Positions 2,450 through 54,887 of a stretch of DNA of 64,000 nucleotides are shown one piece after another. Positions within the stretch are counted from its first letter, which is position 1, and each line of letters starts with the position of its first letter. The notes beneath the pieces were generated by a model. The model was not told where the DNA came from and did no database searches. It saw nothing but the letters and a program-made list of their open reading frames with translations. Made by a program: the position numbers and the translations under genes. Source of the stretch: a virus; IMG/VR virus record IMGVR_UViG_3300013005_000034, positions 9,652 through 73,651 of that record; one strand, given 5' to 3'.

Positions 2450-3478
2450 ATGAGAACATTAGCATCAATTCAAACAATAAAAGACATACAGCCAATAGAA
2501 AATGCCGATAGTATTGAGGTAGCAAGTATATTGGGTTGGAAAGTAGTAGTGTTGAAAAATCAATTCAAAGTTGGCGATAAGGTTGTTTATTGCGAAATAG
2601 ATAGTTTATTGCCAGATATTGAAATATTTTCGTTCCTAAAACCAAGAGGTATGAGAATAAAAACTATTAGATTAAAAGGTCAAATAAGTCAGGGGATTTG
2701 CTTTCCGCTATCCACCGTTGAGTATTTTGGCTTACTTCCCGAAGATATGATTGAAGGGCAAAATGTAACCGAAGCAATAGGTGTCGTTAAACACGAACCA
2801 CCTATCCCAGCTTGTTTAAGTGGAGTTATGAAAGGAAAGTTCCCTTCGTTCATTCCTAAAACAGATGAAACAAGAGTGCAAGTATTACAAAAACTATTAG
2901 ATAAATACGAGGGAACTAATTGCTACATTACCGAAAAAATTGATGGTAGTTCCGTTACCTATTACTTAAAAGATGGGGAATTTGGTGTTTGTAGTCGAAA
3001 TATGGAATTGTTGGAATCCGAAGAAAATACATTTTGGAAAATGGCAAGACAACTTAACATTGAAAACAAATTAAGGTCTTATGGAAAAAACATTGCTATA
3101 CAGGGTGAATCGTTTGGCGAAAAAATACAAGACAACAAACTAAAAATAAAAGGGCATAGGGTATTATTTTTCAATGCTTTTGATATTGACAGGTTTGAGT
3201 ATTTTAATTTTGAACAGTTTGCCTTACTAATGGCAAATTTAGGATTGGATAATGTTCCTATTTTAGATTTCAACTATAAACTATCTAACAGTATTGATAG
3301 AATTATTGAAATGTCAAAAATAAAAAGCACCTTAAATAAAGATGTTTGGGCGGAGGGAATAGTAATTAGACCTCACAAAGAACGTATTGATTTGATGCTT
3401 TCAAATGAAAATTTCAACAATGGTCGTGTAAGTTTTAAAGCAATAAACCCTGAATTTTTAATTAAGTATGGAGAATAA
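2450..3478 (+). CDS. ATP-dependent RNA ligase, DRB0094-like family
   Basis: N-terminal OB-like domain (LASIQ..I.PIENAD.IE...GW.VV), motif I EKIDGSS, QGE, EGIV and FKAIN. Confidence 0.88.
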   Translation: MRTLASIQTIKDIQPIENADSIEVASILGWKVVVLKNQFKVGDKVVYCEIDSLLPDIEIFSFLKPRGMRIKTIRLKGQISQGICFPLSTVEYFGLLPEDMIEGQNVTEAIGVVKHEPPIPACLSGVMKGKFPSFIPKTDETRVQVLQKLLDKYEGTNCYITEKIDGSSVTYYLKDGEFGVCSRNMELLESEENTFWKMARQLNIENKLRSYGKNIAIQGESFGEKIQDNKLKIKGHRVLFFNAFDIDRFEYFNFEQFALLMANLGLDNVPILDFNYKLSNSIDRIIEMSKIKSTLNKDVWAEGIVIRPHKERIDLMLSNENFNNGRVSFKAINPEFLIKYGE

Positions 3479-3968
3479 AAAAGTATTATTTCTTGACCAC
3501 GATGGAGTAATTTGTTTGGCTACGGAGTGGGGTAGTCGTTTTAAAAACAAAGAGGGTTTTGATTCTTTATTTGATAGATTCAATCAAAAGGCAATAAATG
3601 TTTTGAATGAAATAATTGATGAAACCGATTGCGAGATAGTTATTAGTTCTGATTGGAGATTTCATTGCTCATTATCAGAAATGCAACAACTATATAAAAT
3701 AAGAGGAATAGCAAAACCCCCTATGGCATATACTCGTTCTGATTTAGATTGGAAACTATTTTTAGATGTTAATCCCAATAATGAATTAGAAAAAACAAGA
3801 GTTATGGAGATATTAAGTTATGTAAAGGAATATAATTTAGTTAATTGGGTAGCAGTAGATGATATGGATTTAAGTTTATTAGGGAATTTCGTTCATACTC
3901 CAAAATCTATGGAGGGAATTAAGCAGTCAGGTGTAAAAGAAAAAATAATTAAATTTTTAAACAAATGA
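3468..3968 (+). CDS. HAD-family phosphatase (RNA-repair associated type)
   Basis: FLDHDGV, IVISSDWR and WVAVDD motifs; overlaps the RNA ligase gene. Confidence 0.8.
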   Translation: MENKKVLFLDHDGVICLATEWGSRFKNKEGFDSLFDRFNQKAINVLNEIIDETDCEIVISSDWRFHCSLSEMQQLYKIRGIAKPPMAYTRSDLDWKLFLDVNPNNELEKTRVMEILSYVKEYNLVNWVAVDDMDLSLLGNFVHTPKSMEGIKQSGVKEKIIKFLNK

Positions 3969-6978: not shown

Positions 6979-7203
6979 ATGGAACAATTAGAACAACAAT
7001 TAAATGAAAAAATGCTACAAATAGCAAAAGATTACATTCAGAGAAGAAATGATAAACCTTTTGAGCAATACGAGGAGGCAAATTATCTTAATGAAAAATA
7101 CCTTTCAGTAAAAAATGAATTTGAAAAGGAAGGCGATTTTTATATAATCTTAAATGAGTGCATAAAAGTAGTTTTAGGAAAAACAAAAAAAAATACAATA
7201 TGA
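6979..7203 (+). CDS. hypothetical protein
   Basis: ORF after an A-rich leader. Confidence 0.55.
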   Translation: MEQLEQQLNEKMLQIAKDYIQRRNDKPFEQYEEANYLNEKYLSVKNEFEKEGDFYIILNECIKVVLGKTKKNTI

Positions 7204-7355
7204 AAATTAAAAAAAGAAAAATTAAAAACCCTTGTACTATTTGTGGTAAAGAAGTTCGTTGGGGAATTGATGGATGCCCTATTGTTGAAAAAGGCAAAGA
7301 TTTTGAAACTTTATTGGGTGGAGTAAAAGGTATGAAGCATTATGAGTGCAAATAA
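7200..7355 (+). CDS. small Zn-binding protein
   Basis: CTICG...HYEC; likely start ATG 7200. Confidence 0.5.
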   Translation: MKIKKRKIKNPCTICGKEVRWGIDGCPIVEKGKDFETLLGGVKGMKHYECK

Positions 7356-7366
7356 AATTTTTAACA

Positions 7367-7415
7367 TAACGGTTTGCAAATAGGCAATCGTTTTAATGTT
7401 GCTTATTTGCTGTTA
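7367..7415. repeat. attC-like hairpin site 1
   Basis: TAAC-GGTTT-GCAAATAGGCAA...TTGCTTATTTGC-T-GTTA. Confidence 0.8.
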
Positions 7416-7453
7416 GCACCAATACGGATTATTAACAACAAAAATTAAATAAG

Positions 7454-7840
7454 ATGAAAGAATTTAAAAAAGAAAATTTAGAATTTTACTTACCTGATAC
7501 ATTTAAAGGATTAAGTAAAGATTATTTACTTGAATGTATCTTCAATGATGAGATACAGAAAAAATGGAATCCTGATGTTGGAGATATTATTATTGGTTGC
7601 ACTGGCAATATTTTTGTAATTGGGGTTAAAGAAACATTACATGAAAGTATTGGTGGGGCGAGATATTATTTTGGTGGTGGCTCTTGTAATAGAGATGGTG
7701 GTAATATATTAGACAGCACATTTTGTTATACCGCAAATGAATCAGGTAAGTTTTATCACACATTAAAAGGTGAAATTCAAAATATTTATCATTCGTGTAT
7801 TAGAGATTTTAGATACGTTCCTTATCCACACGAAAGGTAG
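7454..7840 (+). CDS. cassette-borne hypothetical protein
   Basis: Flanked by perfect 14-bp IR GTTAGCACCAATAC (7412-7425) / GTATTGGTGCTAAC (7840-7853). Confidence 0.75.
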   Translation: MKEFKKENLEFYLPDTFKGLSKDYLLECIFNDEIQKKWNPDVGDIIIGCTGNIFVIGVKETLHESIGGARYYFGGGSCNRDGGNILDSTFCYTANESGKFYHTLKGEIQNIYHSCIRDFRYVPYPHER

Positions 7841-7849
7841 TATTGGTGC

Positions 7850-7898
7850 TAACGGTTTGCGTATAAAAAATCGTTTTAATGTTTTTTATACGCTGTTA
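7850..7898. repeat. attC-like hairpin site 2
   Basis: TAACGGTTTGCGTATAAAAAATCGTTTTAATGTTTTTTATACGCTGTTA; one mismatch to 14333-14381. Confidence 0.85.
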
Positions 7899-7924
7899 TA
7901 TTTAGTTTTTTAAAACTTTTACAA

Positions 7925-8110
7925 ATGAAAAATATAGAAGAAGCAATACAACTTAACTCAATAGATGAAATTGAGGAAGAAATAAGACAACGAAAGGAAT
8001 TAAGAGCAACGATGGTTGGTCAATTATATCCAAGAATATTAACTGACGAGATTTATAAACTCAATGAAAAGTTGTGGAATATAAGACACTCAAAAGTTTT
8101 AAAAACTTGA
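7925..8110 (+). CDS. cassette-borne hypothetical protein
   Basis: Flanked by 23/26 IR at 7895-7920 / 8092-8117. Confidence 0.7.
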   Translation: MKNIEEAIQLNSIDEIEEEIRQRKELRATMVGQLYPRILTDEIYKLNEKLWNIRHSKVLKT

Positions 8111-8113
8111 ATA

Positions 8114-8228
8114 TAACCGCTAACAGATATATGTAGTTTTAACACAATATTTAATAATATGGAAGAAAGTAAAAATTTAGAACAAAATTTGAATAAGAGT
8201 AATGAAAAATTACATATATCTAATGTTA
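8114..8228. repeat. attC-like hairpin site 3 (long loop)
   Basis: TAAC...AGATATATGTAGTTTT / AAAATTACATATATCT...GTTA. Confidence 0.75.
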
Positions 8229-8407
8229 GTTGTAGTTTATCATACCAACCAAGTTATGTTGAAACTGTTTGTGAAGGTGTGTTTTTCAGAATTAAAGCAC
8301 CATTGATATTCAGTGCTGATGTTTTAGCTTATGCTGGTATATTTTCTTTGTTAGACAAAAAACACACCTTTGAATATTATTGCTTAAAATATCTATCTGA
8401 AAGATAA
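8159..8407 (+). CDS. cassette protein whose N-terminus is encoded inside the att-like site
   Basis: ATG 8159 lies in the loop of site 3 and the ORF reads KLHISNVSCSL across GTTA; 16/17 IR at 8225-8241 / 8403-8419. Confidence 0.7.
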   Translation: MEESKNLEQNLNKSNEKLHISNVSCSLSYQPSYVETVCEGVFFRIKAPLIFSADVLAYAGIFSLLDKKHTFEYYCLKYLSER

Positions 8408-8415
8408 ATTACAAC

Positions 8416-8540
8416 TAACGGTTTGCGTGTATAAGAAGTGGCGGATTAGAACTCCAAAACTTTCAGCAAACGCAGAACTTAATTAGAATTACAAAACATT
8501 AAATAACCAAGAAACCCGCCATTTTTTATACACGCTGTTA
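8416..8540. repeat. attC-like hairpin site 4 (long loop)
   Basis: TAACGGTTT-GCGTGTATAAGAAGTGGCGG / CCGCCATTTTTTATACACGC-TGTTA. Confidence 0.8.
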
Positions 8541-8570
8541 GTGGCTGGGCTTTTCACAAATTGAAACAAA

Positions 8571-8747
8571 ATGAACAAAATATTGATATGTGTATTATTG
8601 CAAATCGTTCTTTTTATTCCATTTTATTTGATATGGAGAAATGATTGTAAAACGATAGGTAAAGACAACTTGGCTGTTAGCTTACAAGAACGATTTTTGT
8701 ATTGGCTAATATTTTGTCCAATTTGGTTGGTTGGTGTGTTGGATTAG
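8571..8747 (+). CDS. cassette-borne small two-TM membrane protein
   Basis: 58-aa ORF not in track (MNKILICVLLQIVLFIPFYLIW...); 13/15 IR at 8537-8551 / 8746-8760. Confidence 0.7.
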   Translation: MNKILICVLLQIVLFIPFYLIWRNDCKTIGKDNLAVSLQERFLYWLIFCPIWLVGVLD

Positions 8748-8756
8748 CCTTGCCAC

Positions 8757-8845
8757 TAACTTACTTCTTTACGCTACAATTAAGGAAATAAAAAGTTATT
8801 AACAATTGCATAATTAAATAAAATAATTACTAATTTTGACCACAA
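8757..8845 (+). repeat. 89-bp array-terminal element (candidate attI-like site plus Bacteroidota promoter), copy 1
   Basis: 82/89 identical to 15443-15531; starts with TAAC; contains GTTATTAAC and TAATTTTG (8831-8838). Confidence 0.8.
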
Positions 8846-9100
8846 ATGATACTAAAGTTTAAATACGGTTTTGAATACAATGATTTTCTTTATGGATGGA
8901 ACAATAAAGAATTATACAGATTGCCCTCTAAGAGTGGCAATAAATCTTATGGATTAAAGAAATTAGATTCTATTGTAGTTGGTAACTCAATTGGATATAG
9001 AATTAAACAACAAAAGTTCTCTTTAAAACAACTTAAAGATAGAACGATATTCATAGACAAAGAATATCAAGTTATTAGCGATACAGTTGATATACCTTAA
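8846..9100 (+). CDS. hypothetical protein, weakly similar to 12605-12853
   Basis: ELYRL...GYRI...FS pattern resembles EIYQL...YYRI...YS. Confidence 0.6.
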   Translation: MILKFKYGFEYNDFLYGWNNKELYRLPSKSGNKSYGLKKLDSIVVGNSIGYRIKQQKFSLKQLKDRTIFIDKEYQVISDTVDIP

Positions 9101-9151
9101 AAAATCACAAACAAACAATAAACCAAAACACAAATCAAAATCACAAACAAC

Positions 9152-10345
9152 ATGAAAAGACAAACCACCCTCGCAGAATTGGTAACGGAGTTGAAAGACC
9201 AAAATCTGCAAAAAAAAGATTTCGTAGTTCCTGCAAATCTTTTATCAATGGAAAATGGAAAATTAGTAGTGAACAATTATAGTTCAAACGATTCTCTACA
9301 AAAGATACTTACAGAAGTAGGTATTCAATCAGAGGATTCCAATAAACTAATTTTAAATTGCTTACCTGTAATTCATCAAAACTTATCAGATAAATGCGAT
9401 ATTCCTCGTAAATACTATAATCGTATTCAAGGACTAAAAGACCAAACACTAATTGATACAAATGTTACTCATTGGTTAAAATCCATGAAAGGAAATGTTT
9501 TTTTAAGAACATTTATTGACAAAGATGAACAAAATGGATTCGCAAGAGCATTACTTTCAGATAGATATAACGTAATTGATAACTTTGATGTTTTATTAGC
9601 TACACTTGAAGCAGTTAAGAATAGTGGATTAAACTTAAAGATTGAAGATAACGGTTGTGATTTATCAGAATCTAAAATGTATGTAAGATTTGTTGCTCCT
9701 GAAATTGAAATTAACGCACCCGATTTATTAAAAAACTACAAAAATCCAAAAGGTAATAGTAATGTAGGTGATGGTATTATTACTGGATTTGTTGTTACTA
9801 ATAGCGAAATAGGGCAAGGTTCATTTAATATCAGTCCAAGAGCTGTTATATTAAAGTGCCAAAACGGAATGGTATTTAAAAATGATGCCTTTGGTAAAAT
9901 TCACTTAGGTTCAAAAATGGAACAATATTCTCAAATTGATTGGAGCGAAGAAACTAAAAGAAAAAATTACGAGTTAATTCAGGCGCAAGTAAAAGATGCG
10001 GTTAAGAAATTCACAAGCGAAGATTTTTTAGCACAAAAAATAAGTGAATTAAACGAATATGCTGAAATTGAATTAAAACATCCTATTGAAACAGTTAAGA
10101 ATGTTAGCAAATTATTAAACATTACCGAAGAAAAAGAAAAAAGTATTCTTGACTTCTTTATGAGAGGTGGCGATTTTAGTTACATGGGAGTAAGTCAGGC
10201 ATTAACATTCTTTGCTCACGAAACAAAAGATGCAGACGAAGCTCACGATTTAGAAACAACAGCTATTGAAATTTTACCAAAAATTAAAGAGTTGGATAAA
10301 CCCTCTGTTTCAAAATCAGTTAAAACTCAAATGAGTTTAAATTAA
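9152..10345 (+). CDS. DUF932/DUF945-like phage protein
   Basis: RALLSDRY..IDN, ITGFVVTNSEIG.GS...P....L.CQNGM and HLG motifs. Confidence 0.72.
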   Translation: MKRQTTLAELVTELKDQNLQKKDFVVPANLLSMENGKLVVNNYSSNDSLQKILTEVGIQSEDSNKLILNCLPVIHQNLSDKCDIPRKYYNRIQGLKDQTLIDTNVTHWLKSMKGNVFLRTFIDKDEQNGFARALLSDRYNVIDNFDVLLATLEAVKNSGLNLKIEDNGCDLSESKMYVRFVAPEIEINAPDLLKNYKNPKGNSNVGDGIITGFVVTNSEIGQGSFNISPRAVILKCQNGMVFKNDAFGKIHLGSKMEQYSQIDWSEETKRKNYELIQAQVKDAVKKFTSEDFLAQKISELNEYAEIELKHPIETVKNVSKLLNITEEKEKSILDFFMRGGDFSYMGVSQALTFFAHETKDADEAHDLETTAIEILPKIKELDKPSVSKSVKTQMSLN

Positions 10346-10362
10346 TAATTTAGGAAATAAAA

Positions 10363-10386
10363 AAAGGGGGAAATCACGCCCCCTTT
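10363..10386 (+). terminator. stem-loop, probable intrinsic terminator
   Basis: AAAGGGGG-aaatcacg-CCCCCTTT after the stop codon. Confidence 0.55.
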
Positions 10387-10499
10387 CTAAACCAAAGACA
10401 CTATGTCAAAATAACACTAACGCCACAATAGGCGATACTAAATTATAAATTAAATAAACAATTAATTAATTTTTATATTATACAACTAAATTGTAAAAA

Positions 10500-11387
10500 A
10501 TGAACATCAGTCAATCACTACTAAAATCCCTATTAGATTATCGTAATGGAAAAGAATGTGGATTAATATTTAAGGCAAAGTATATAGATGGAAGATACGA
10601 TTTATTTCCTCCCTCCGATGCACAAAATGTAGGTGCATGGTTTGAATATATGGCTACTGGTAGCATACCTAAAAATGGTATAGTGCCAAAAGCAGAATAT
10701 ATGAAAAGAGGTAAAGATGAAAATGGCAACCCTGAACTTACTGCCGATTATCGCTTAATGAGAGAACATATAGATAATTTCAAAAAGAATATGGAGAGTT
10801 ACTCATTAGATATTATTACAGCAGGAGAAGATATTAAAGTTTTATATCCTAATTCTTTAGAAGAATATGGAGAAGAAGTTTATTTAACAGGAACTCTTGA
10901 TGTAAGAGCAAGAGCAAATAAAGATATTTTTGCTAAATACCAAGATACTATCGTTAAGGTAGCTTCAAAAGATGAAGAAGTTATTATTGATATTAAAACG
11001 ACTGGATTGTTAGACGATAAATGGTCGGAAATGGGCTGGGAGATTAATAATCTATCAAATAAAATTAAACTTGTTACTCAACCTGTTCACTATAAATTTA
11101 TTGAGTATTTAAAAACAGACAAAGATGTACCTTTTATATTTATGTTGTTCAATTCTAAAAACTCAAAAGATGCAAGAATTATTGATTTTAAAGTTGATAG
11201 TTCATCTTTTGAAGAACATAAAGCGTTTATTGAATCGGGAGTTGAAAATATGTTGCATTTGAGAAAATATGGTTTCAAAGCGTTGCCATCACTTGAAAAA
11301 TGTTCAAAATGTCCTTTGAATACTGATTGTAAGTTTAAAGCAGAAATTTCGCCAATAACTATATTTTATTTTGCTCATCAGGTTTAA
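10500..11387 (+). CDS. PD-(D/E)XK exonuclease, Cas4/AddB-like
   Basis: GTLDV...IIDIKT core; N-terminal Cys plus C-terminal CxxCP-x4-C as possible Fe-S ligands. Confidence 0.75.
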   Translation: MNISQSLLKSLLDYRNGKECGLIFKAKYIDGRYDLFPPSDAQNVGAWFEYMATGSIPKNGIVPKAEYMKRGKDENGNPELTADYRLMREHIDNFKKNMESYSLDIITAGEDIKVLYPNSLEEYGEEVYLTGTLDVRARANKDIFAKYQDTIVKVASKDEEVIIDIKTTGLLDDKWSEMGWEINNLSNKIKLVTQPVHYKFIEYLKTDKDVPFIFMLFNSKNSKDARIIDFKVDSSSFEEHKAFIESGVENMLHLRKYGFKALPSLEKCSKCPLNTDCKFKAEISPITIFYFAHQV

Positions 11388-11392
11388 TATAT

Positions 11393-11400
11393 TATGTTTG
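11393..11400 (+). promoter_or_regulatory. Bacteroidota-type -7 promoter element
   Basis: TATGTTTG matches TAnnTTTG upstream of the GIY-YIG gene. Confidence 0.55.
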
Positions 11401-11404
11401 TATC

Positions 11405-11520
11405 GCACAATTCAACTAAAATGAAATTACAAAAAAAATATTTAAAAAAAACCTTTAAGCAAGTAGGAATCCTCTATTTTTAGTTGATTGTGCAACCTAC
11501 TTGCGAGAAGGGATTTTTAA
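11405..11520 (+). promoter_or_regulatory. structured 5' leader with a 20-aa uORF
   Basis: 11405-11421 is complementary to 11478-11493 and 11459-11467 to 11496-11504; uORF at 11421-11483. Confidence 0.5.
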
Positions 11521-11522
11521 TC

Positions 11523-12335
11523 ATGGAAACATCATTAATTATTGAAATTTCATCTTTGCCTTGTATAGATGATAAAAGAGGGCGTTATAGAACAATAGAA
11601 TTATATCCAAAAATTAGTGGAATTTATAAAATAACATCTCCTAATGGCTCTATTTATATTGGTTTATCAAATGATATTTATTATAGGATTTATAGTTGTT
11701 ATAAGAAATTAAGATGTAAGGCTCAACATAAAATATATAATTCTTTAATTAAATATGGTATTGATAATCATAAATTTGAAATTATTCATATTGTTGAAAA
11801 TTTTGAAGAATATGAGAAAATTAAAATTTTAAGAAAATTAGAAATAGCTTATATACAAAAATATAATTCATTTTATGGAAATAATAATTTTGGAATGAAT
11901 TTAACAAAAGGAGGCGAAATAATTGAATTAACAGATGAAACTAAAAAAATAATGAATGATAAGAAAAAAGGTAGGATTGTTTCCCAAGAAACAAGAGAAA
12001 AGTTAAGGAAAATAAATTTAGGTAAAAAATTATCACAAGAACATAAAGATAAAATTAGTATATCTCATAAAGGAAAAATTGTTTCAGAATTAACAAAAAA
12101 AAGATTAAGTGAATCTCACAAAGGAGAAAAACATAGTTTTGAACGAATACAAAAAAAAATTGGAAGTAAACAAAATCCTGAAACAATAAAAAAAAGAATT
12201 GATAAGATTAGCGGTATTAATCATTGGACAAAAAAATATGGCGGTCATTCAGAGCAAACAAAGATAAAAATAAGTATATCACTCAAAGAAAGGCATAAAA
12301 AAATGTCTAATAAGAATGAAAAAAACACTAATTAA
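11523..12335 (+). CDS. GIY-YIG homing endonuclease with NUMOD3 repeats
   Basis: SGIYKIT...IYIG, MNLTKGG and repeated SxETxxKIS.xxKG; likely start ATG 11523. Confidence 0.88.
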   Translation: METSLIIEISSLPCIDDKRGRYRTIELYPKISGIYKITSPNGSIYIGLSNDIYYRIYSCYKKLRCKAQHKIYNSLIKYGIDNHKFEIIHIVENFEEYEKIKILRKLEIAYIQKYNSFYGNNNFGMNLTKGGEIIELTDETKKIMNDKKKGRIVSQETREKLRKINLGKKLSQEHKDKISISHKGKIVSELTKKRLSESHKGEKHSFERIQKKIGSKQNPETIKKRIDKISGINHWTKKYGGHSEQTKIKISISLKERHKKMSNKNEKNTN

Positions 12336-12627
12336 AAGAAAAAAATTAAGTAAGAGTTTAAGAATAAAAATATTTGAGAGGGATAATTATGAATGTCAGT
12401 TGTGCTATGACAATTTAATAGATAAAAAAGATTTAAGAGTAATAGACCATAAAATACCTCTTTCAAAAGGAGGCAGTAACTCAATATCAAATCTTTGGCT
12501 ACTTTGTAATGATTGTGATAAAAGAAAGAAAAATAAATTGTTTCCTGAATTGATGAAACAATACATAAAGGGTAAGTTAAATTATCTTTCTAATTTAAGA
12601 TTTAATGGAAATCGTTATAATAAGTGA
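12316..12627 (+). CDS. HNH endonuclease
   Basis: RDNYECQLC...DHKIPLSKGG.N...NLWLLCNDC. Confidence 0.85.
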   Translation: MKKTLIKRKKLSKSLRIKIFERDNYECQLCYDNLIDKKDLRVIDHKIPLSKGGSNSISNLWLLCNDCDKRKKNKLFPELMKQYIKGKLNYLSNLRFNGNRYNK

Positions 12628-12853
12628 ATATGAAAATTTACCTTACATAGTTAAAAGCGAGAATGGAGAAATATATCAGTTAAGTTATTATGATACTAAA
12701 AAAAGAATTAAAAAATACAAAATATTAATACCTAAAGAGCATAACGGAAGTATGTATTATAGAATTAATAGTGAGAGATATTCAGATTATAGATTAAAAA
12801 CAATTGAGATTAAAGTTTATAAAAGAATTAACCTAAATAAAATAAAAAAATGA
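12605..12853 (+). CDS. hypothetical protein
   Basis: Operon ORF; weak similarity to 8846-9100. Confidence 0.55.
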   Translation: MEIVIISEYENLPYIVKSENGEIYQLSYYDTKKRIKKYKILIPKEHNGSMYYRINSERYSDYRLKTIEIKVYKRINLNKIKK

Positions 12854-13140
12854 AACCATTAAAAATCAAAGGAGTTAAATTAAAAAAAGGAGAAGAATTA
12901 TTACATTATTATCCTTTTTGTTATTGCATAGCAAAATCTACTGAAAGTAGTGCTTTATTTGTAATACCTCCACAAAATAAAGGAACTGTTGCAGATAATG
13001 GTTATTTAAGCGTTTGTTTTGATTATAAATTATGTAAAGATGTAAAAGTAGGAGATTGGTGCGAAGTAGGTTATATAAGTGATTATAGTAAAGGAGAAAA
13101 TAAAGTGCTTAAAATATTAAAATCTAAAAAAAATAAATAA
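12850..13140 (+). CDS. hypothetical protein
   Basis: ATGA overlap with the upstream gene. Confidence 0.55.
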   Translation: MKPLKIKGVKLKKGEELLHYYPFCYCIAKSTESSALFVIPPQNKGTVADNGYLSVCFDYKLCKDVKVGDWCEVGYISDYSKGENKVLKILKSKKNK

Positions 13141-13372
13141 TATGAATAAAAAAATTAATATTATAGGAATCATTATTTTTTTATTTTCTCTTTCATATTT
13201 AACAATATACACTATGATTATTGATTTATATTATGGTATATCTATGGGATTAATTTCAATTTTATTTATAATAATTATATTAAAAAGTAAAAAAAAGAAA
13301 AATGAATAAGTATGGAAAATAAAAATACTTTCTATGGGATTGAAATATTTAAAAACTAAAAAAAATAAAAAT

Positions 13373-13410
13373 AAATAAAAACAAACAAAATGAAAACAAC
13401 AAAAACAAAA
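13373..13410 (+). repeat. 38-bp direct repeat, copy 1
   Basis: AAATAAAAACAAACAAAATGAAAACAACAAAAACAAAA, identical to 15554-15591. Confidence 0.7.
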
Positions 13411-13434
13411 ACAAAAATGAAAACAACAAAAAAA

Positions 13435-13662
13435 ATGGAACACAAAAATTTGAATACAAAAGAAACCGCCAATAGCGATTTAGGTGCTGTTAGCGGTAGT
13501 TTGAGGGAACAATCTCTTGAATGGTTTTTCGCAAAAAGTGAAATTGAGAAACACGATTTAAAAGACAAACACTTTCCAAACACACCAATACAGCATAGTA
13601 GGCAATGGGGATTTCATTTCACTTTTGGTCAAATTGAGGAAATGTATGTTAAAGAACGGTAA
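13435..13662 (+). CDS. cassette protein starting within an att-like site remnant
   Basis: MEHKNLNTKETANSDLGAVSGSL reads across GCTGTTA; 14/15 IR at 13489-13503 / 13663-13677. Confidence 0.7.
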   Translation: MEHKNLNTKETANSDLGAVSGSLREQSLEWFFAKSEIEKHDLKDKHFPNTPIQHSRQWGFHFTFGQIEEMYVKER

Positions 13663-13740
13663 CAAATTACCGCTAACGGTTTGCAAATATATTTCAGTTG
13701 CGGTAAAAATAATAATAACTTAATTAAATAAATAAAAAAA

Positions 13741-14295
13741 ATGGAAAACACAAAAAAAGCATACAAAGAAATATTTAAAGTCTTAAATAAATATAAAGAT
13801 GTTATTGTTATTGATATTAAAACATTAGAGGAAAAATCAAAACTCCATTTATTTGGATTAGAATTAAAAGAAGTTTACGGACTTGAAATCAATGAGAAAC
13901 GTATCAATAATATGCAATATCAGGAATTAAAAGACAACGTATATCTAACTTTTATTGATAGCGAAACGAGAACTATAAGCTGGGAAGATAATGGCAAAAA
14001 ACCAAAAGGAGAAAGTTTGATTAAGTTTAGTTATCCAACAGGAGCTTACATTTTTGGTGGAGATTATCCTACTGATTTTTTCCAAAAGTTTTTTTTAGAA
14101 TTGAAATCATTTAATCCCGATTATTGCGATAGCGCCAATAAAAGCCTGTATTTTAAATTGGAAAATGCAAAAGAAATATTTAATAGTTATGATTCAATAA
14201 TAAAAAAATATTACGAATTAAACAAAGAAGATATTAAACAAAGACAGATTTTAAAAATGAAAGCCGATTTAGAAAAATTAGAAGCAAGTAAGTAA
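13741..14295 (+). CDS. cassette-associated hypothetical protein
   Basis: Lies between half-site 13674 and complete site 14333. Confidence 0.7.
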   Translation: MENTKKAYKEIFKVLNKYKDVIVIDIKTLEEKSKLHLFGLELKEVYGLEINEKRINNMQYQELKDNVYLTFIDSETRTISWEDNGKKPKGESLIKFSYPTGAYIFGGDYPTDFFQKFFLELKSFNPDYCDSANKSLYFKLENAKEIFNSYDSIIKKYYELNKEDIKQRQILKMKADLEKLEASK

Positions 14296-14332
14296 CGCAC
14301 CCACAGGCGGGGAGGGTTTTAAAACTTGTACC

Positions 14333-14381
14333 TAACGGTTTGTGTATAAAAAATCGTTTTAATGTTTTTTATACGCTGTTA
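14333..14381. repeat. attC-like hairpin site (array 2)
   Basis: 48/49 identical to 7850-7898. Confidence 0.85.
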
Positions 14382-14484
14382 TAACCAGTAGGGATTATTA
14401 AGTACAAATGCTCATTCGGAGAAGTAAACAAAAAATTAAAACAAAAAAAGTGTAGGGAATAATTAATCAATTAAATAATAAAAA

Positions 14485-15357
14485 ATGACAACAGAAAAAC
14501 AATTTGGCGACTTATCACATTTTGCAAAAAGAGATGTAGAACTTTTTAGAAGTTCAGACCAAAACGAAACCGCTATCTATTTTACGGAATTAGAAGATAA
14601 GCAAAGAGAAACTGCGAAAGCGTTTTTTGAAATACTGCGATTTGGCTTGGATGGTGGCGACCATCAAATATATGTTCGTTTCCCAAATACTGACCATTTT
14701 GTAGAAATGATTGGTGGTGGATTTGGTTCAGGTAGAGGGTATATGAAAGTAGCTGATGGTAAAAATGTTTGGGAGGATAAAAACAAAGCACCATTTAGAA
14801 TCTATTCACATAATAAGGATTTACTTTTCATAATTGGTAGAACTGATTGGACTGGAGAATTTAATTTTATGACAAAAGTTGCAAGTTATGATAAAGGAAA
14901 TCCATTCAATCATCCTTATCCTAATGAAACATTTGTGAATTTCAAAGAGATTGAAAAAGCACTTTCAATGAAATATTTAAAGATACCTGAAAGTATAAGA
15001 AAGATTGAATATTGCTACAAAACTAAAGATACAACACCAAAATATTTTGTAGTGGATTATCCAGCTTACAATTTCAAATATGACAACCATAGATTTTTTG
15101 TGATTGAAAATGAACATATAAAAGAATTTGGGATTAAAAACTTTGTAAGATACAAAGATGGTGGAACAACTATCATTACTGTAACCGATGAAAACGGAAT
15201 TGAACACAAATTCTTTTCACCAACATCATTGCCTGAAAAAACGCTTTGTGAAAAGTGGGATAAAACTGAATTGATAGAAGCAAGTGAAACTGAAAAGCAA
15301 AAACTTACAGAACTTTTGAATTTGAATGTAGAACCAAATATAGTTGACAAAGAATAA
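14485..15357 (+). CDS. cassette-borne hypothetical protein (290 aa)
   Basis: 14/15 IR at 14378-14392 / 15432-15446, plus inner perfect 21-bp IR at 14429-14449 / 15381-15401. Confidence 0.75.
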   Translation: MTTEKQFGDLSHFAKRDVELFRSSDQNETAIYFTELEDKQRETAKAFFEILRFGLDGGDHQIYVRFPNTDHFVEMIGGGFGSGRGYMKVADGKNVWEDKNKAPFRIYSHNKDLLFIIGRTDWTGEFNFMTKVASYDKGNPFNHPYPNETFVNFKEIEKALSMKYLKIPESIRKIEYCYKTKDTTPKYFVVDYPAYNFKYDNHRFFVIENEHIKEFGIKNFVRYKDGGTTIITVTDENGIEHKFFSPTSLPEKTLCEKWDKTELIEASETEKQKLTELLNLNVEPNIVDKE

Positions 15358-15442
15358 TCATTTAGTCATTTGTGTGTGGATTTTTTTGTTTTAATTTTTT
15401 GAACGATAAAGTTAATTCGGAGCAGTCCACACCTATTGGTTA

Positions 15443-15531
15443 TAACTTATTTATTTGCGCTACAATTAAGGAAATAAAAAGTTATTAACAATAGTATAAT
15501 TATGTAAAATAATTACTAATTTTGACCACAA
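15443..15531 (+). repeat. 89-bp array-terminal element, copy 2
   Basis: 82/89 identical to 8757-8845; TAATTTTG at 15517-15524. Confidence 0.8.
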
Positions 15532-15553
15532 TACAGAAAATAAGAAGCACGAG

Positions 15554-15591
15554 AAATAAAAACAAACAAAATGAAAACAACAAAAACAAAA
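15554..15591 (+). repeat. 38-bp direct repeat, copy 2
   Basis: Identical to 13373-13410. Confidence 0.7.
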
Positions 15592-15597
15592 TAAAAA

Positions 15598-16413
15598 ATG
15601 AAAACAAAAATGAAAACAAAAATTGTAACATTAGCAATCGCATTAGTATTAATTTTAACATCATGCGGAACACTTGTAGAGCCTAACTATGGTGGTGTAT
15701 TAATGCAAAATTATGGAAAGAATGGTAAATCAGATTTTACCGAAGTTCAGGGGAGGGTATCAACTTGGGGTATGGGAACGGAATTGTATCAAGTGCCTAT
15801 GTGGGAGCAAAGAGGACAAGTAGATGATACATTACATTTAATTTCTGCCGATAATAACGAAATTGAAGCATACCCTAAATATTCATATCAGGTAAACAAA
15901 GGTCGTTTAGTTGATGTAGTATTTGATAATAGACAATTAGGAAAGGGAAAAGAATTTTTATCATCTGTTGAAAGTAATTCTTTAGAACCAAGAATTTATG
16001 ATATTATAAAAGAAGAAAGCCGTAAATATATTACTGATACCCTTATGTCTATTGGTGGTGCTTTAAAGTTTGAAAAGGATTGTGAGGCATTAGTTAGAAA
16101 AGCATTTGAAGATAAAGGTTTCAAACTATTAACTTTTGTCGCTCAACTTAAATATTCCGATAAAGTTCGAGAAAAGATTGACCAAAGATTAGAGGTTAAT
16201 ACAAACATATCGGTTATTGACCAACAAATAGCAGAACAAAAGAAAAAGAATGAATTGGAAAAGTTAAGAACAGAGTTTATTCTTATTCAAAATCAGGCAT
16301 TAACACAAGCATACCTACAAAACAAATGGCTTGACAAATGGGATGGTAAGTTAAGCACTTATAGTTCAAATGGTAATATGCCTATTCCAATGATTAATGC
16401 AAATCAAAAATAA
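15598..16413 (+). CDS. SPFH/band-7 domain lipoprotein
   Basis: Lipobox LTSC, V.P.Y.GV motif and C-terminal coiled coil ending WLDKWDG.L. Confidence 0.75.
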   Translation: MKTKMKTKIVTLAIALVLILTSCGTLVEPNYGGVLMQNYGKNGKSDFTEVQGRVSTWGMGTELYQVPMWEQRGQVDDTLHLISADNNEIEAYPKYSYQVNKGRLVDVVFDNRQLGKGKEFLSSVESNSLEPRIYDIIKEESRKYITDTLMSIGGALKFEKDCEALVRKAFEDKGFKLLTFVAQLKYSDKVREKIDQRLEVNTNISVIDQQIAEQKKKNELEKLRTEFILIQNQALTQAYLQNKWLDKWDGKLSTYSSNGNMPIPMINANQK

Positions 16414-26131: not shown

Positions 26132-26368
26132 TTATTTGTTTTGTTTTATAATATAAGGGGGATATATTCTAACTATACCACCATCACTATTTTTATAACA
26201 TAAAGTATCACTATCAAAACTTATACTATCCGTATTCCAAATAGCATATTTCAAACCAACTTTTGTATCAACCCAACCTGAAATTTGATATTTATAATCT
26301 CCTTCTTTACAAAAGTTTAATGTCAAAGTTAAAAAACAAAGCGTTAGTATTTTAATTAAATTATACAC
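26132..26368 (-). CDS. small secreted/lipoprotein
   Basis: Signal peptide with Cys; GTG start. Confidence 0.5.
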   Translation of the reverse strand: MYNLIKILTLCFLTLTLNFCKEGDYKYQISGWVDTKVGLKYAIWNTDSISFDSDTLCYKNSDGGIVRIYPPYIIKQNK

Positions 26369-26385
26369 TTCAAGATATTAGTGAA

Positions 26386-27558
26386 CTACCCACCCACGCC
26401 ACAGGCGATGGGATGGGCTTCAAGGGTTAACGCTCCAACTAACGTTGGCAACTTACCTTGATTTTTCCTATCCGTTCCAGATAAGATATTTTTTAATGCA
26501 AATGATTTAATATTTATGGCAGCATTCAAATCCCTCGAAACTACTTCACCGCACTTCGGACAAGTCCATTCTCTATCTTTTAGAGTTAGGTCTTTGTTTG
26601 TGTATCCACAGTTTGCGTGTAGTTTGCTTGATGGCTCAAATCTGCCAATTTTTAGAATGTTTTTACCGTGCCATTCTGCTTTGTATTCTAACATAGTTAC
26701 AAAAGTTGACCACCCTGCATCACTTATTGATTGTGCAAGTTTGTGGTTCTTTACCATATTAGAAACTGCTAAATCTTCTATTGCTAAACTATCGTGGTTC
26801 TTGATTAGTTCGCTTGAAGTTTTATGTAAGAAGTCTTTTCTTTGGTTAGCTACTTTTTCGTGTAGTATAGCCAACTTATGTTTTGTTCTTTTTCCTTTGT
26901 GCTTTGAGTATTTTCGTTGCACATACTTTAATTTACTTTGTGCTTTACGAACGAATTTAGGATTATCAAATTCCTGTCCATCAGATGCAACAAGGTATGT
27001 TTTAATTCCTAAATCTATTCCAACGGTTGTGCTTTCTTTAATCGGTGCTTTTGGTTTAATTGCTTCACCAGTTTCACAAAGTATAGAAACAAAATATTTA
27101 CCTGTTGGAGTTCTGCTAATTGTGGCTTGCCTTATTTCTCCTTTGATTTGTCGGTGCAGAACAATATCAATTCCTTTTTTAAATTTAGGAATAACAAGTT
27201 TACCATCTTCTAAAGATACATTTTGTGGTATATTGAAACTACCACCGTTTGATTTCTTTTTAAAATTAGGGAAACTGTTTTGTCCTTTAAAAAAAGCTGT
27301 ATATGCTTTGTCTAAGTTAGTAATTGATTGTTGTAAGGATTGGCTGTTTATTTCTTTAAGCCATTCACATTCAGTTTTAAGGTCTTTTAATTGGCTATGT
27401 AAGGCAAAGCAACTTAAATTAACTTTATTTCCAGCCCAAGCCATCTGTTTACATTCTAAGGCTAAATTAAACACAAAACGACTTGCTCCAATATGCTTAT
27501 TCAGCAAAATGGATTGTTCCTTTGTAGGAGATAAACGATATTTAAAAGCCTTTAGCAT
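26386..27558 (-). CDS. tnpB: RNA-guided endonuclease TnpB
   Basis: KAFKYRL.P HTH; RuvC motifs GIDLG / IEDL / RDLNAA; Zn ribbon CPKCG. Confidence 0.93.
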   Translation of the reverse strand: MLKAFKYRLSPTKEQSILLNKHIGASRFVFNLALECKQMAWAGNKVNLSCFALHSQLKDLKTECEWLKEINSQSLQQSITNLDKAYTAFFKGQNSFPNFKKKSNGGSFNIPQNVSLEDGKLVIPKFKKGIDIVLHRQIKGEIRQATISRTPTGKYFVSILCETGEAIKPKAPIKESTTVGIDLGIKTYLVASDGQEFDNPKFVRKAQSKLKYVQRKYSKHKGKRTKHKLAILHEKVANQRKDFLHKTSSELIKNHDSLAIEDLAVSNMVKNHKLAQSISDAGWSTFVTMLEYKAEWHGKNILKIGRFEPSSKLHANCGYTNKDLTLKDREWTCPKCGEVVSRDLNAAINIKSFALKNILSGTDRKNQGKLPTLVGALTLEAHPIACGVGG

Positions 27559-27582: not shown

Positions 27583-27663
27583 CAAAAGTTTAAAGAAACA
27601 ACAACATTTATTTAAAATAATTATCAACATTTAATAGATAAGGTCGCTTTCATCCCACCCACG

Positions 27664-28305
27664 CTAAAAAGCGATGAGTGGGCTTTTGCTCCCATTCTGT
27701 AAAGAATAATATTTTTTAGTTAGAGTAATACGTTCAGCAAGTCCGTTCACTCCTCCATTAATCTTTTTAGTTACTGCCGTAATTGTTGCATCATCAATTC
27801 CTTTATCACAAATACTCCATAAACCATTTTTATCAAAAAAGTAAAATGCTGATTCAAATGCAAATTCAGTCGCAACTAAATCAGGATTCGCCATAATTTC
27901 AGGCTTATTCAAAAACTTTGAAAATGCTTCAAAATTTGATTTCCCAGTAAGCTGCAATGCTCCTCTACCTCTAAATTTGAAACCTTCTCCACTTGCTTCA
28001 TCTCCATTACCCATTCGACTTGCGTAAACTCTATTAGCTATTCTTTCAGGTTTCCTTTCATATCCCTGCGCTTCAGTTAAAGTTTTAAAATATTTAGGGA
28101 ATGTTTTTAGTAAACCTTGTGCTGAATAATTTAAGTTTTCAGAAAAAACTTTGAAATGACCAGTTTCGTGAGAAGTCTGTCCAAAAAAATGCGCTGCCCT
28201 TATTGGCGACATTTTATAAAAATTCATTGCTGCTTTTAGAGTTCCTACTCCCAAAACCCCATCGGCTATTGTGCCAATTTTTGTTTGTAGAATTTTTAAA
28301 CTCAT
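27664..28305 (-). CDS. glycoside hydrolase family 19 endolysin
   Basis: AHFFGQTSHETG.F...ENLNYS, FRGRG.LQLTG..N and VT.KINGG.NGL..R motifs; N-terminal ADG..G..T PG-binding-like motif. Confidence 0.88.
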   Translation of the reverse strand: MSLKILQTKIGTIADGVLGVGTLKAAMNFYKMSPIRAAHFFGQTSHETGHFKVFSENLNYSAQGLLKTFPKYFKTLTEAQGYERKPERIANRVYASRMGNGDEASGEGFKFRGRGALQLTGKSNFEAFSKFLNKPEIMANPDLVATEFAFESAFYFFDKNGLWSICDKGIDDATITAVTKKINGGVNGLAERITLTKKYYSLQNGSKSPLIAF

Positions 28306-53821: not shown

Positions 53822-54736
53822 TCATTTATTTTTTATATTTTCCCAATAAAGTTTTCTTACATCACTCATAATTTTTTTTGTTGCTTCGCTATGTTTTTTT
53901 CCAAAAAATGTATTTTTCTTATTAGATAATCTCAATTTTGCCATTTCACTTAATTTCTTTTTAGTTTCATCTGTCATAAATATTTTTCTTCCAGAAATTC
54001 TTTTTTTAATGTGTTCTGGAGATTGTTTTTTTCCTAATTTTGACAATCTCATATTTATTTTAGCCTGTTCGCTCATGGGCTTTTTCATATTTATAGTTTG
54101 AGCCTCTGTCATTTTTTTTCCTTTATTCCATGGTGTTTTTCCCTTTAGTGATTCGCTTATTTTTTTCTTACATTCATCACTTAAATTAATACCCCTTAAT
54201 TTACTTGGCTTACCAATTTTTGATAAACTCATTTTTAATATTGATTCTTTAGAATGATGTTTTCCAGTTATAAAAGGTTTAACCCCTTTTTTAGACAAAC
54301 TCATTTTTAATCTTGATTCTTTACTCTTTTTTTTACCTAATGAAGATAATCTCATTTTTAATTTTGATTCTTCACTATGTTTTCCGTTAGCACCACCACA
54401 TTCTCTTAAATTTAAACCAAACTCTCTATCAGTTGATTTATATATATTTGAATAATATATTTCTAAATAATTTAATTCTTCTTCTTTACAAATATGTATT
54501 ATTTCAAACTTATGATTCTCTATGCCATATTTTAATAAAGAATTATATAAATAAATTTGTTTTTTACAATGTAATTTTTTATAAATATAAAATCTACTAT
54601 ATAAATCATTAGATTGACCTATATAAACTTTATTGCTTGGAGATGTAATTTTATAAATACCAATCAACGCATTTTCTATATCTTTATTACAAGATATAGA
54701 AGATATATCAACAATGGTATTTTGTATTTTTTTCAT
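53822..54736 (-). CDS. GIY-YIG homing endonuclease with NUMOD3 repeats
   Basis: GIYKITSPS.KVYIGQS; HSEE(S/T)K.KM repeats; likely start ATG 54736. Confidence 0.88.
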   Translation of the reverse strand: MKKIQNTIVDISSISCNKDIENALIGIYKITSPSNKVYIGQSNDLYSRFYIYKKLHCKKQIYLYNSLLKYGIENHKFEIIHICKEEELNYLEIYYSNIYKSTDREFGLNLRECGGANGKHSEESKLKMRLSSLGKKKSKESRLKMSLSKKGVKPFITGKHHSKESILKMSLSKIGKPSKLRGINLSDECKKKISESLKGKTPWNKGKKMTEAQTINMKKPMSEQAKINMRLSKLGKKQSPEHIKKRISGRKIFMTDETKKKLSEMAKLRLSNKKNTFFGKKHSEATKKIMSDVRKLYWENIKNK

Positions 54737-54737
54737 A

Positions 54738-54887
54738 TTACAATTTCCCTTGTTTGCGTAAAACCTCACAAGCCTTCTTAACCGCATCTGAATATTTTTT
54801 CACTTTGCCTGTCGCCCAAATTGCTTTTGCTTCTTTTTGAATCATTTCCATTCTCGATTTGTTTGCGTTTTTTGTTGATTTTGCCAT
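54738..54887 (-). CDS. small basic protein (possible DNA-binding core protein)
   Basis: 49-aa ORF not in track: MAKSTKNANKSRMEMIQKEAKAIWATGKVKKYSDAVKKACEVLRKQGKL. Confidence 0.6.
   Translation of the reverse strand: MAKSTKNANKSRMEMIQKEAKAIWATGKVKKYSDAVKKACEVLRKQGKL

Follow-up and report, generated by a model that had tools for sequence, protein, structure and literature searches.

Leader-bearing attC-like hairpins as candidate sources of start codons in a phage cassette array

Two small open reading frames (ORFs) of a virus genome, at 8159-8407 and 13435-13662, begin in sequence that resembles a recombination site and continue through its core, which raises the question of whether such a site can provide the gene behind it with a start codon, and of what happens to the encoded protein when the site is exchanged. 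The stretch in which they lie, called the window here, comprises 64,000 nucleotides (nt) and corresponds to bases 9652-73651 of one 73,651-base (73.6 kb) virus record, IMG/VR IMGVR_UViG_3300013005_000034. Both ORFs are probably, with a likelihood of roughly 70%, cassette genes in an integron-like array, in which hairpins that bear a short leader have been re-paired with gene bodies at the cores of the sites. The original prediction for this locus had proposed that the hairpin supplies the start of the downstream gene and also travels with it; the first of these proposals agrees with the results described below, and the second is not borne out as a rule.

The record is 62% complete as estimated by CheckV and low in G+C, with early genes on the plus strand and structural genes on the minus strand. 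Its short DNA matches are to Polaribacter phage P12002L and Tenacibaculum phage Gundel_1, and the host of the phage, which is from a lake, is probably a member of the Bacteroidota. Positions are those of the window, except where 'genome' marks those of the whole record. Loci and records from related phage contigs, and loci from bacterial assemblies, are designated by L-numbers, and P0001 and P0002 are database proteins.

Two reading frames that open inside hairpin sites

The first ORF opens in site 3, a long-loop hairpin. A repeat finder returned its arms (8125-8140 and 8206-8221) as 16 nt of 94% complementarity with 65 nt between them, and folding of the single-stranded DNA of 8106-8241 gives the same hairpin. 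The ATG at 8159 is contained in the loop (8141-8205), the right arm encodes KLHIS, and the arm is followed by AAT and the core GTTA (8225-8228). ORF 8159-8407 consists of a 22-codon leader, encoded by the loop and the right arm, a valine read from GTT, and a body of 59 residues; it reads ...KLHISN VSCSL..., and its sole methionine is the start. The coordinates of this ORF and its passage through GTTA had been predicted correctly. The ends of the cassette behind site 3 are mutual inverted copies (17 nt, 94%, repeat finder). The left arm is preceded by TAAC at 8121-8124, and another TAAC lies at 8114-8117, so that two cores stand 7 nt apart (ATATAAC CGCTAAC, 8114-8124). The second TAAC resembles the tail of a GCGGTA-type right box (ACCGCTAAC), whose counterpart is the left box at 13489, and the doubled core may be the scar of a lost cassette.

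The second ORF begins in a half site. The sequence before the GTTA at 13489 has no left arm; homologues of its leader, right arm and GTTA form part of complete hairpins in other contigs. The proposal that both ORFs begin in a recombination site is borne out by a full hairpin for site 3 and, for 13435, by a site that has lost its left arm. The sequence upstream is A-rich and provides extra in-frame ATGs at 13390 and 13417, and the longer ORF 13390-13662 contains ATG 13435 in frame. Comparison within its leader family identifies 13435 as the conserved start, and both upstream ATGs sit in unrelated A-rich sequence. The ORF (...ETANSDLGAV SGSL...) crosses GCTGTTA in the same frame relative to GTT as the first one, in agreement with the prediction, and its only later methionine stands 6 residues before the end; neither ORF has an in-frame methionine soon after the core.

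Loss of the left arm with retention of leader, right arm and core was recorded for the window site at 13435, for L123 and L126, and, in another leader family, for L116. That the ATG and the leader persist at these half sites after the left arm has gone speaks for retention of the leader as coding sequence. Two ORFs of the window have A-rich stretches of low complexity in front of them (13390-13434 and 15571-15620), in which in-frame ATGs recur (ATGAAAACAACAAAAACAAAA...), and the first of these stretches stands in place of the left half of the hairpin at ORF 13435. The coordinates of the features are collected in Table 1.

Table 1. Sites, reading frames and cassettes of the window, further leader-bearing sites of the record, and three leader ORFs of related phage contigs with their domains
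Feature	Position	Strand	Particulars
Short-loop site S1	7367..7415	+	TAAC GGTT stem, loop TCGTTTTAATG, stem, GTTA
Short-loop site S2	7850..7898	+	85.5% identical to an intergenic element of P12002L
Site 3, long-loop attC-like hairpin	8114..8228	+	From sequence and repeat finder; arms and leader also in L117 and L118
ORF of 82 residues	8159..8407	+	Start in the loop of site 3; body found behind two other leaders
Cassette 3	8225..8419	+	Left box GTTAGTTGTAGT; right box ATTACAACTAAC (8408-8419)
Long-loop site S4	8416..8540	+	Stem of ~22 pairs, loop of 65 nt, no read-through ORF; cassette 8537-8760 behind it (ORF 8571-8747) starts at an ATG of its own
Half site	13435..13492	+	Leader start ATG 13435; right arm ~13467-13487; T; GTTA 13489-13492
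ORF of 75 residues (90 from 13390)	13435..13662	+	Leader MEHKNLNTKETANSDLGA, V, body SGSLREQSLEWFF...
Cassette	13489..13677	+	Left box GTTAGCGGTAGT; right box ATTACCGCTAAC (13666-13677)
Truncated site S5	13674..13712	+	TAAC GGTTTGC...; part of left arm kept, right arm lost; found by eye and by exact motif at 13673
Short-loop site S6	14333..14381	+	Followed by cassette 14378-15446 (ORF 14485-15357)
Leader-bearing site	genome 3117-3246		ATG 3189; ...LADV/MQRD
Leader-bearing site	genome 4747-4872		ATG 4794; ...RIADV/MRSA
Leader-bearing site	genome 5736-5854		ATG 5810; ...FAKPM/LPAV...; MT-A70 methylase, Pfam domain from residue 25
Leader ORF of L032			N6_N4_Mtase from residue 37; next Met 116
Leader ORF of L033			C5 methylase from residue 20; next Met 113
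Leader ORF of L027			Class I synthetase-like domain from residue 21; next Met 25

Inspection by eye and by script gave ~16 hairpin sites in the record (genome 2599-6515, window 7367-8540 and window 13466-14381), 49-125 nt long with loops of 9-79 nt. They form arrays in which hairpin modules (TAAC...GTTA) alternate with gene modules (GTTA-N6-G...T-N6'-TAAC). In the hairpin modules the inner stem covaries and the spacer is asymmetric, with GGTTT on one side and T on the other, and the short-loop sites follow the pattern TAAC GGTT(T), stem, TCGTTTTAATG, stem, (T) GTTA. Alignment of 17 distinct short-loop copies, three from the window and 14 from other phage contigs, revealed an inner stem of 12 pairs with 96.6% of the cells paired and 10 pairs changed on both sides, a degree of covariation reached by 0 of 500 shuffles. 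A G-G mismatch is present in many inner stems. TAAC and GTTA are invariant in 17/17 of these copies and present at all sites of the window, and the remainder of the 7-base consensus GTTRRRY is not kept (e.g. GTTAGTT, GTTAGCG).

The site detector used for the surveys requires G[GT][TC] as the spacer and tolerates at most 2 mismatches in a stem of 12 or more pairs; it is blind to site 3, which has an odd spacer, and to half sites. The pattern TAACGGTTTGC-N25-55-GCTGTTA was found in 114 stretches of the viral collection, most of which contain hairpins of the TAAC/GTTA architecture. An Rfam scan of 7000-16000, with E-values up to 1, returned no family.

Cassette boundaries and candidate recombinases

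The six bases that follow GTTA are complementary to the six that precede the next TAAC, that is, across the gene. Complementarity of at least 5/6 was observed in 61.5% of 161 cassettes; the corresponding figures were 3.4% for flanks of the same site (263 cases) and 3.8% for pairs drawn at random. In the window, this cross-gene box rule applies to 7412-7853 (14/14 bases), 8225-8419, 8537-8760, 13489-13677 and 14378-15446. Position 11 of the outer box is not a Watson-Crick pair in 97/99 cassettes (G/T in 78, C/T in 15, T/T in 4; Watson-Crick in 2), the G of the G/T combination being in the left box and the T in the right box, and this mismatch points to a strand-specific fold. Furthermore, homology with other contigs begins and ends at the cores: 7367-7415, 7850-7898 and genome 6464-6515 are 100% identical to copies with unrelated flanks, among them the TAAC-to-GTTA copies of S1 in L056 and L087. 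By analogy with integrons, the box rule together with the breaks at the cores is the classical argument for cassettes, with a putative crossover between G and TT.

A reading of the hairpins at the RNA level, as processing stems of the RNase III type, was rejected, as the flanks of a site are not paired to one another (47% of cells). The truncated site S5 departs from the rule for the other sites in having flanks that pair locally (TTACCGC / GCGGTAA).

The cores appear to be in tight coding use, as supported by the position of stop codons. The TAA of the TAAC core serves as the stop of the upstream ORF at 75/231 sites that follow an open frame of 40 codons or more (from a set of 263 unique sites). 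A second stop peak is found 10-13 nt upstream of the core, immediately beyond the 12-nt box, and ORFs of the record that stop at the core end at genome 3419, 5024, 6466 and 6807. With a start from the hairpin and a frequent TAA stop in the next core, a cassette could consist of coding sequence alone between its two cores. An element of ~80-90 nt (…GCGCTACAATTAAGGAAATAAAAAGTTATTAACAAT…), which contains a weak hairpin and a GTTA, is shared by the ends of three arrays, where it follows the last TAAC (window 8757-8845, window 15443-15530 and L001 6804-6890); it could be an attI-like array-end site or a promoter.

Candidate recombinases were found in related phages. Five related records, picked because they carry several sites, all encode a PF00589 protein of 263-289 residues (E 1e-34 to 5e-45), and a relative was detected in 9/50 further records, which makes 14/55 related records altogether. 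The gene is found downstream of the array, in the same orientation; co-oriented sites are situated directly upstream (within ~1.5 kb) of 13/15 recombinase genes, L142 and L143 being the exceptions. The array-linked recombinases combine PF13495 with PF00589. When compared with NCBIfam TIGR02249, NF040815 and TIGR02224/5 and with the PDB structures 2a3v, 4a8e, 5hxy and 1a0p, they scored best with the archaeal XerA / integron integrase, XerC/D and IntI models, in all cases below the curated cut-offs. The match to TIGR02249 is likewise below cut-off and falls into two pieces that skip model positions ~181-238, and the nearest solved structures are XerA, IntI4 (2a3v, in two pieces) and XerD.

In the mechanism proposed here, hairpin and gene modules would exchange at the 4-nt cores, and recombination would in this way re-pair leaders and bodies. 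The exchange would proceed through a folded single strand, as it does for attC, a proposal based on the asymmetry of position 11 between the strands, on that of the spacer and on the activity published for IntI1. The catalyst would be a Xer/IntI-like tyrosine recombinase or, in the present phage, one from the host or from a co-infecting phage acting in trans. Since most site-bearing phages, this record included, are without a recombinase gene, supply in trans would be needed, if a recombinase is used at all.

The same hairpins might instead be regulatory stem-loops, each a terminator with a promoter or start module, that are shuffled by general recombination or template switching, so that the fusions arise as a by-product; the promoter-early stem-loops (PeSL) of T4-type phages offer a parallel. 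This alternative is unlikely, and yet several observations favour it, namely the 100% identity of hairpins over 49-52 nt in many unrelated contexts, the conserved A-rich loop element at a fixed distance from the ATG, the presence in the record of a PDDEXK-like nuclease and a conserved 397-residue neighbour, and the 41/55 related records which, like this one, have no recombinase. It leaves the inverted gene ends and the near-invariant mismatch at position 11 unexplained, and it does not predict that homology breaks at 4-nt cores rather than within repeats or that a recombinase adjoins the arrays in nearly all cases (13/15). The recombination of phage attC sites by IntI1, described in PMC9892861, also speaks for site-specific exchange.

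Leaders, bodies and loop start codons

Re-pairing of leaders and bodies at the cores has left its pattern in both families of the window. The body of ORF 8159-8407 occurs with three leaders, MEESKNLEQNLNKSNEKLHISN in the window, MKNIKLAENTVDSNVKLHISG in P0001 (body 100% identical) and MDNNNKKDELNNTDKKLHISD in P0002 (95%), and the KLHIS encoded by the right arm is kept in all three copies. The leader of this ORF, MEESKNLEQNL(N/D)KSNEKLHIS(N/D/E), precedes four bodies (window, L116, L117, L118); in L116, leader and right arm are present and the left arm is gone. Similarly, the body of ORF 13435-13662 stands behind MNNKEIENGFKGAV in L119 (90% identity) and behind MNTEKTNLENEKPALSKGAV in L120 (66%), which makes three leaders in total, and a further homologue in L121 has its own start (MTETHHDPQVRESALEWFF...) and no site. 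The corresponding leader, MEH.NLN..ETANSDLGAV, is followed by eight bodies, that of the window and seven others (L042, L122-L127). The distance from ATG to GTT is 18 codons in 8/8 members of this family, the 36 nt upstream vary at 34/36 columns, and the similarity stops right after GTTA. A leader of the form MS.E..NGNFAKP(M/V) is fused to the MT-A70 methylase of the record; in L042/L044 it is joined to an unrelated ORF and in L027 to a 442-residue synthetase-like ORF. The original prediction had suggested a search for the same C-terminal part behind different leaders, which proved positive for both bodies, and the new N-terminal fusions that it offered as the alternative, for exchange at GTT, agree with the breaks of similarity at GTTA.

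It is quite improbable that a hairpin and the gene behind it form one fixed unit, the leader being simply the N-terminus of the gene, which happens to fold. A single block comprising the S4 hairpin and the cassette 8537-8760, from TAAC 8416 to TAAC 8760, is conserved in L015, a counter-example to re-pairing, and the constancy of KLHIS in the three copies of the 8159 body and the half sites that keep the leader without a left arm (window, L116, L123, L126) agree with such a unit. The occurrence of one leader before four unrelated bodies and of another before eight does not, nor does that of the 13435 body behind three unrelated leaders and hairpins; moreover, MT-A70 homologues with an ATG of their own are found behind short-loop sites. 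The fixed unit is thus already contradicted for both families of the window, and joint movement of hairpin and downstream gene is not supported as a general pattern.

Where contigs from four lake metagenomes cover 7000-9400, ~15/24 of the loose ends listed coincide with TAAC/GTTA cores. Among ten flanks checked, eight are absent from the record. These ends are consistent with exchange and go no further than that, since contigs break at repeats anyway and two of the flanks are paralogous sites of the same genome. Contigs of two lake runs skip 66-67 nt within 8443-8512, which is exactly the S4 loop, and this contig evidence suggests that short-loop and long-loop versions of the S4 hairpin coexist in the population.

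The start codons themselves would be provided by a subclass of hairpins in which a loop of 55-95 nt carries a start context of the local type, an ATG and ~10 codons. The right arm and the core would add ~8 codons, with GTT read as valine or TTA as leucine, and a cassette behind such a hairpin would need no start of its own, being read as leader plus body. If the loop ATG is the start used, recombination would make or break expression and create N-terminal fusions. Besides the two ORFs of the window, three further in-site ORF starts were located in the record just upstream of the window, and dozens in related phage contigs.

A survey covered 263 unique sites flanked on both sides by 150 nt or more (153 long-loop and 110 short-loop). 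An ORF that starts at a loop ATG and extends at least 35 codons past GTTA was present at 58/153 long-loop sites, as compared to 6/153 for the reverse strand of the same sites, and at 0/110 short-loop sites. The frame tally covered 82/249 sites with at least 35 open codons from GTTA, duplicates retained; the 52 read-through frames, which are not de-duplicated, comprise 32 in frame 0 (GTT), 20 in frame 1 (TTA) and 0 in frame 2. From the leader, the frame stays open through 59-428 codons of the cassette body. The context of the loop ATG, examined at 42 unique sites with loops of 55-95 nt, has A at -12 in 93% and 67-93% A at -11 to -14; for ordinary genes of the record, represented by the 76 of 130 ORFs with at least 100 residues, A accounts for 58-71% at -10 to -14. 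The loop-ATG context resembles that of the ordinary genes and exceeds it.

Pfam domains were found in 8 of 15 long leader ORFs scanned, and in 3/8 the domain starts before the next in-frame methionine (L032, L033 and L027; Table 1). For the MT-A70 homologues of L026, L103 and L030, which follow short-loop sites, an ATG of their own is placed a few codons upstream of the conserved YxIIYADPAW; cassettes for the same enzyme therefore occur both with and without a start of their own. The proposal that the hairpin supplies the start is in line with the conserved position of loop ATG and leader, with bodies that have no ATG, and with the three domains that precede the next methionine.

It is very improbable that the leader ORFs are untranslated, with true starts at non-ATG codons in the core or behind it and with frames that stay open through the site as a side effect of sequence constraints on the hairpin arm: translation is deduced from sequence, the junction peptides follow from conserved nucleotides (GGTGCTGTTA giving GAV, CCGATGTTA giving PML or DV) and the codon-position signal is weak, but the strand asymmetry, the constant ATG-to-GTT distance below an upstream region that is free to vary, the use of two of the three frames, the gene-like start context, the domains that begin before any later methionine and the half sites that retain the ATG all contradict it.

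A number of observations nevertheless weigh against an integron-like array with leaders re-paired at its cores, or limit its extent. Six-frame searches of the record for PF00589, PF01797 and PF00239 yielded no tyrosine, serine or Y1 recombinase, and Pfam and PHROGs searches over 78 and 122 ORFs of the record yielded no recombinase other than TnpB (IS605 OrfB). Among the 21 related records that are at least 90% complete, 16 are without the recombinase and 5 have it. From the model comparisons, the array-linked enzymes appear to be members of a Xer/IntI clade without the insert that defines IntI, which seems to be missing because the pieces of the IntI model omit the positions mentioned above. 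The fold energy of site 3 is ordinary (z -1.2, with 19/200 shuffles as good, and also -1.2 for the other strand); as it is not distinctive in itself, the credibility of the site rests on the evidence from its family. In the MEH leader, codon positions show a weak pattern, with 7/4/7 variable columns in the part encoded by the loop. The leader peptide itself seems barely constrained, and compensatory changes between the arm variants (ANSDL versus AQLGI versions) show the main constraint to be pairing and not the peptide. The linkage of a gene to its upstream as against its downstream hairpin gave 3 independent pairs only, after de-duplication. An ATG is present right at the core in several cassettes (GTT ATG or ATG TTA), and the leader may be dispensable there. 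In L032, L033 and L027 a start upstream of the core would be needed, unless non-ATG codons between core and domain are used. Among the sequencing runs listed for 7300-9300, none is recorded as RNA. By inference from sequence comparisons, the loop ATG would be the start actually used.

Relation to integrons and neighbouring features

Qi et al. (2023, PMC9892861) describe CALINs, attC clusters in which an integron integrase is missing, for virulent phages, Polaribacter phage P12002L among them, and note methyltransferase cassettes in such phage clusters. IntI1 inserted P12002L_attC2, one of two P12002L attC sites tested, into attI1 between the G and the TT of GTTRRRY (PMC9892861). The arrays analysed here resemble the P12002L clusters in having hairpins with AAC...GTT cores between co-oriented small cassettes, several of which encode DNA methyltransferases. 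The element of P12002L that resembles S2 is intergenic in a three-methyltransferase region, which holds three sites of the same family. The P12002L cluster contains this site family, to which the assayed attC2 may belong. Unlike the present description, the passages of PMC9892861 mention neither start codons or leader ORFs inside attC, the word 'translation' having 0 occurrences in its text, nor a phage Xer-like recombinase beside the arrays.

For class 1 integrons, the review PMC8876359 describes short reading frames of attI1 (ORF-11, ORF-18 and ORF-17), short ORFs within attC and cassettes that are fused; according to it, the attI1 short ORFs rescue cassettes that lack start signals of their own and fusions such as gcuF1-blaOXA-28 are documented. 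An ORF of the ORF-11 type and the phage leader have in common a start of their own inside the recombination site, a course that spans the crossover and a downstream part that depends on the cassette. According to the same review, ORF-11 and ORF-18 normally stop within the cassette and act by translational coupling, whereas the phage leader would read in frame into the body as a regular arrangement. The phage leader is, in addition, placed in the loops of attC-like sites all along the array and not in attI, and it is found in phages.

Integron cassettes are regarded as promoterless genes with a start codon of their own; here, in contrast, the recombination site itself would provide the start codon and the N-terminus. 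The attC site, about 57-141 nt in length, is an imperfect hairpin in which two paired regions are combined with a spacer that stays unpaired and a terminal loop that varies, and a cassette begins with bases that match its own distal end and not the preceding site. The sites studied here have AAC/GTT cores, an imperfect hairpin and first-base complementarity across the gene. The mismatch at position 11 and the G-G mismatches might correspond to the extrahelical bases by which attC marks the bottom, recombining strand. Two features of an integron platform, the IntI-specific domain and an integrase at the head of the array next to attI, were not found in the arrays. A CALIN is defined by two or more neighbouring attC sites without intI in the vicinity, and the window, with sites at 7367, 7850, 8114, 8416, 13674 and 14333 and no recombinase, fits one by its architecture. 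The PeSL cassettes of T4-type phages and the pdif modules of Acinetobacter plasmids are also small accessory genes flanked by short repeats, either structured or inverted, that are thought to shuffle them; we know of no cassette-specific inverted boxes, AAC/GTT cores or in-frame leaders in either system.

Phage attC clusters, attI1 leader ORFs and occasional fused cassettes are already known. The literature searched, the supplements of PMC9892861 aside, contained no in-frame start and leader in attC-like loops as a regular arrangement, and it described neither the re-assortment of leaders and bodies nor a compact recombinase at the tail of phage arrays. The wider proposition is a gene-shuffling system of phages parallel to integrons, in which the site acts as a portable first exon, a Xer-type recombinase without the IntI insert is encoded at the tail of the array or borrowed in trans, and lytic phages gain instant expression of accessory genes such as anti-restriction methylases; this is tentative, with chances slightly short of even. 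If it is correct, site-specific exchange sets both the position of a gene and whether and how it is translated, which amounts to an on/off and fusion switch, and gene callers and cassette catalogues that cut at GTT would mis-annotate the proteins concerned. Phage attC clusters would then be a working expression platform for accessory genes, many of them DNA methyltransferases, and not bacterial debris, and the compact recombinase with its structured sites would be a candidate for single-strand recombination outside classical integrons.

A scan of bacterial genomes with the site pattern gave at least 120 stretches, among which prophages or mis-binned phage contigs may be included; in the genome collection scanned, hundreds of chance occurrences of the pattern are expected by estimate. 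Of 80 examined, 37 hold the hairpin, mostly in Bacteroidota assemblies, and at least three sites on one strand are present in 6 of the 80 loci (L223, a complete Fluviicola chromosome, and L185, L190, L194, L213 and L215). When two recombinases were compared by tblastn with the 120 bacterial stretches, 2 were found to match among the matches listed.

The TnpB gene of the record lies on the minus strand at 26386-27558 (PF01385, PF07282, PF12323). Its ends (flanks 26360-26440 and 27640-27700) are G+C-rich palindromes that contain GTGGGTGGG and differ from the TAAC/GTTA sites, to which TnpB seems unrelated. Motifs that resemble GTGGGTGGG, or CCCAC, are also present inside untranslated regions of cassettes (window 14296-14320, L001 4035 and 6530). 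Between the arrays of the window, a GIY-YIG homing endonuclease gene is followed by an overlapping gene for an HNH endonuclease (11523-12627), and a second GIY-YIG gene is located among the structural genes at 53822-54787. At 2450-3968, an RNA ligase (PF09414 with an OB-fold domain) adjoins a HAD domain of the RNA-repair 'Swiss Army knife' type, which suggests a tRNA or RNA repair module of the phage.

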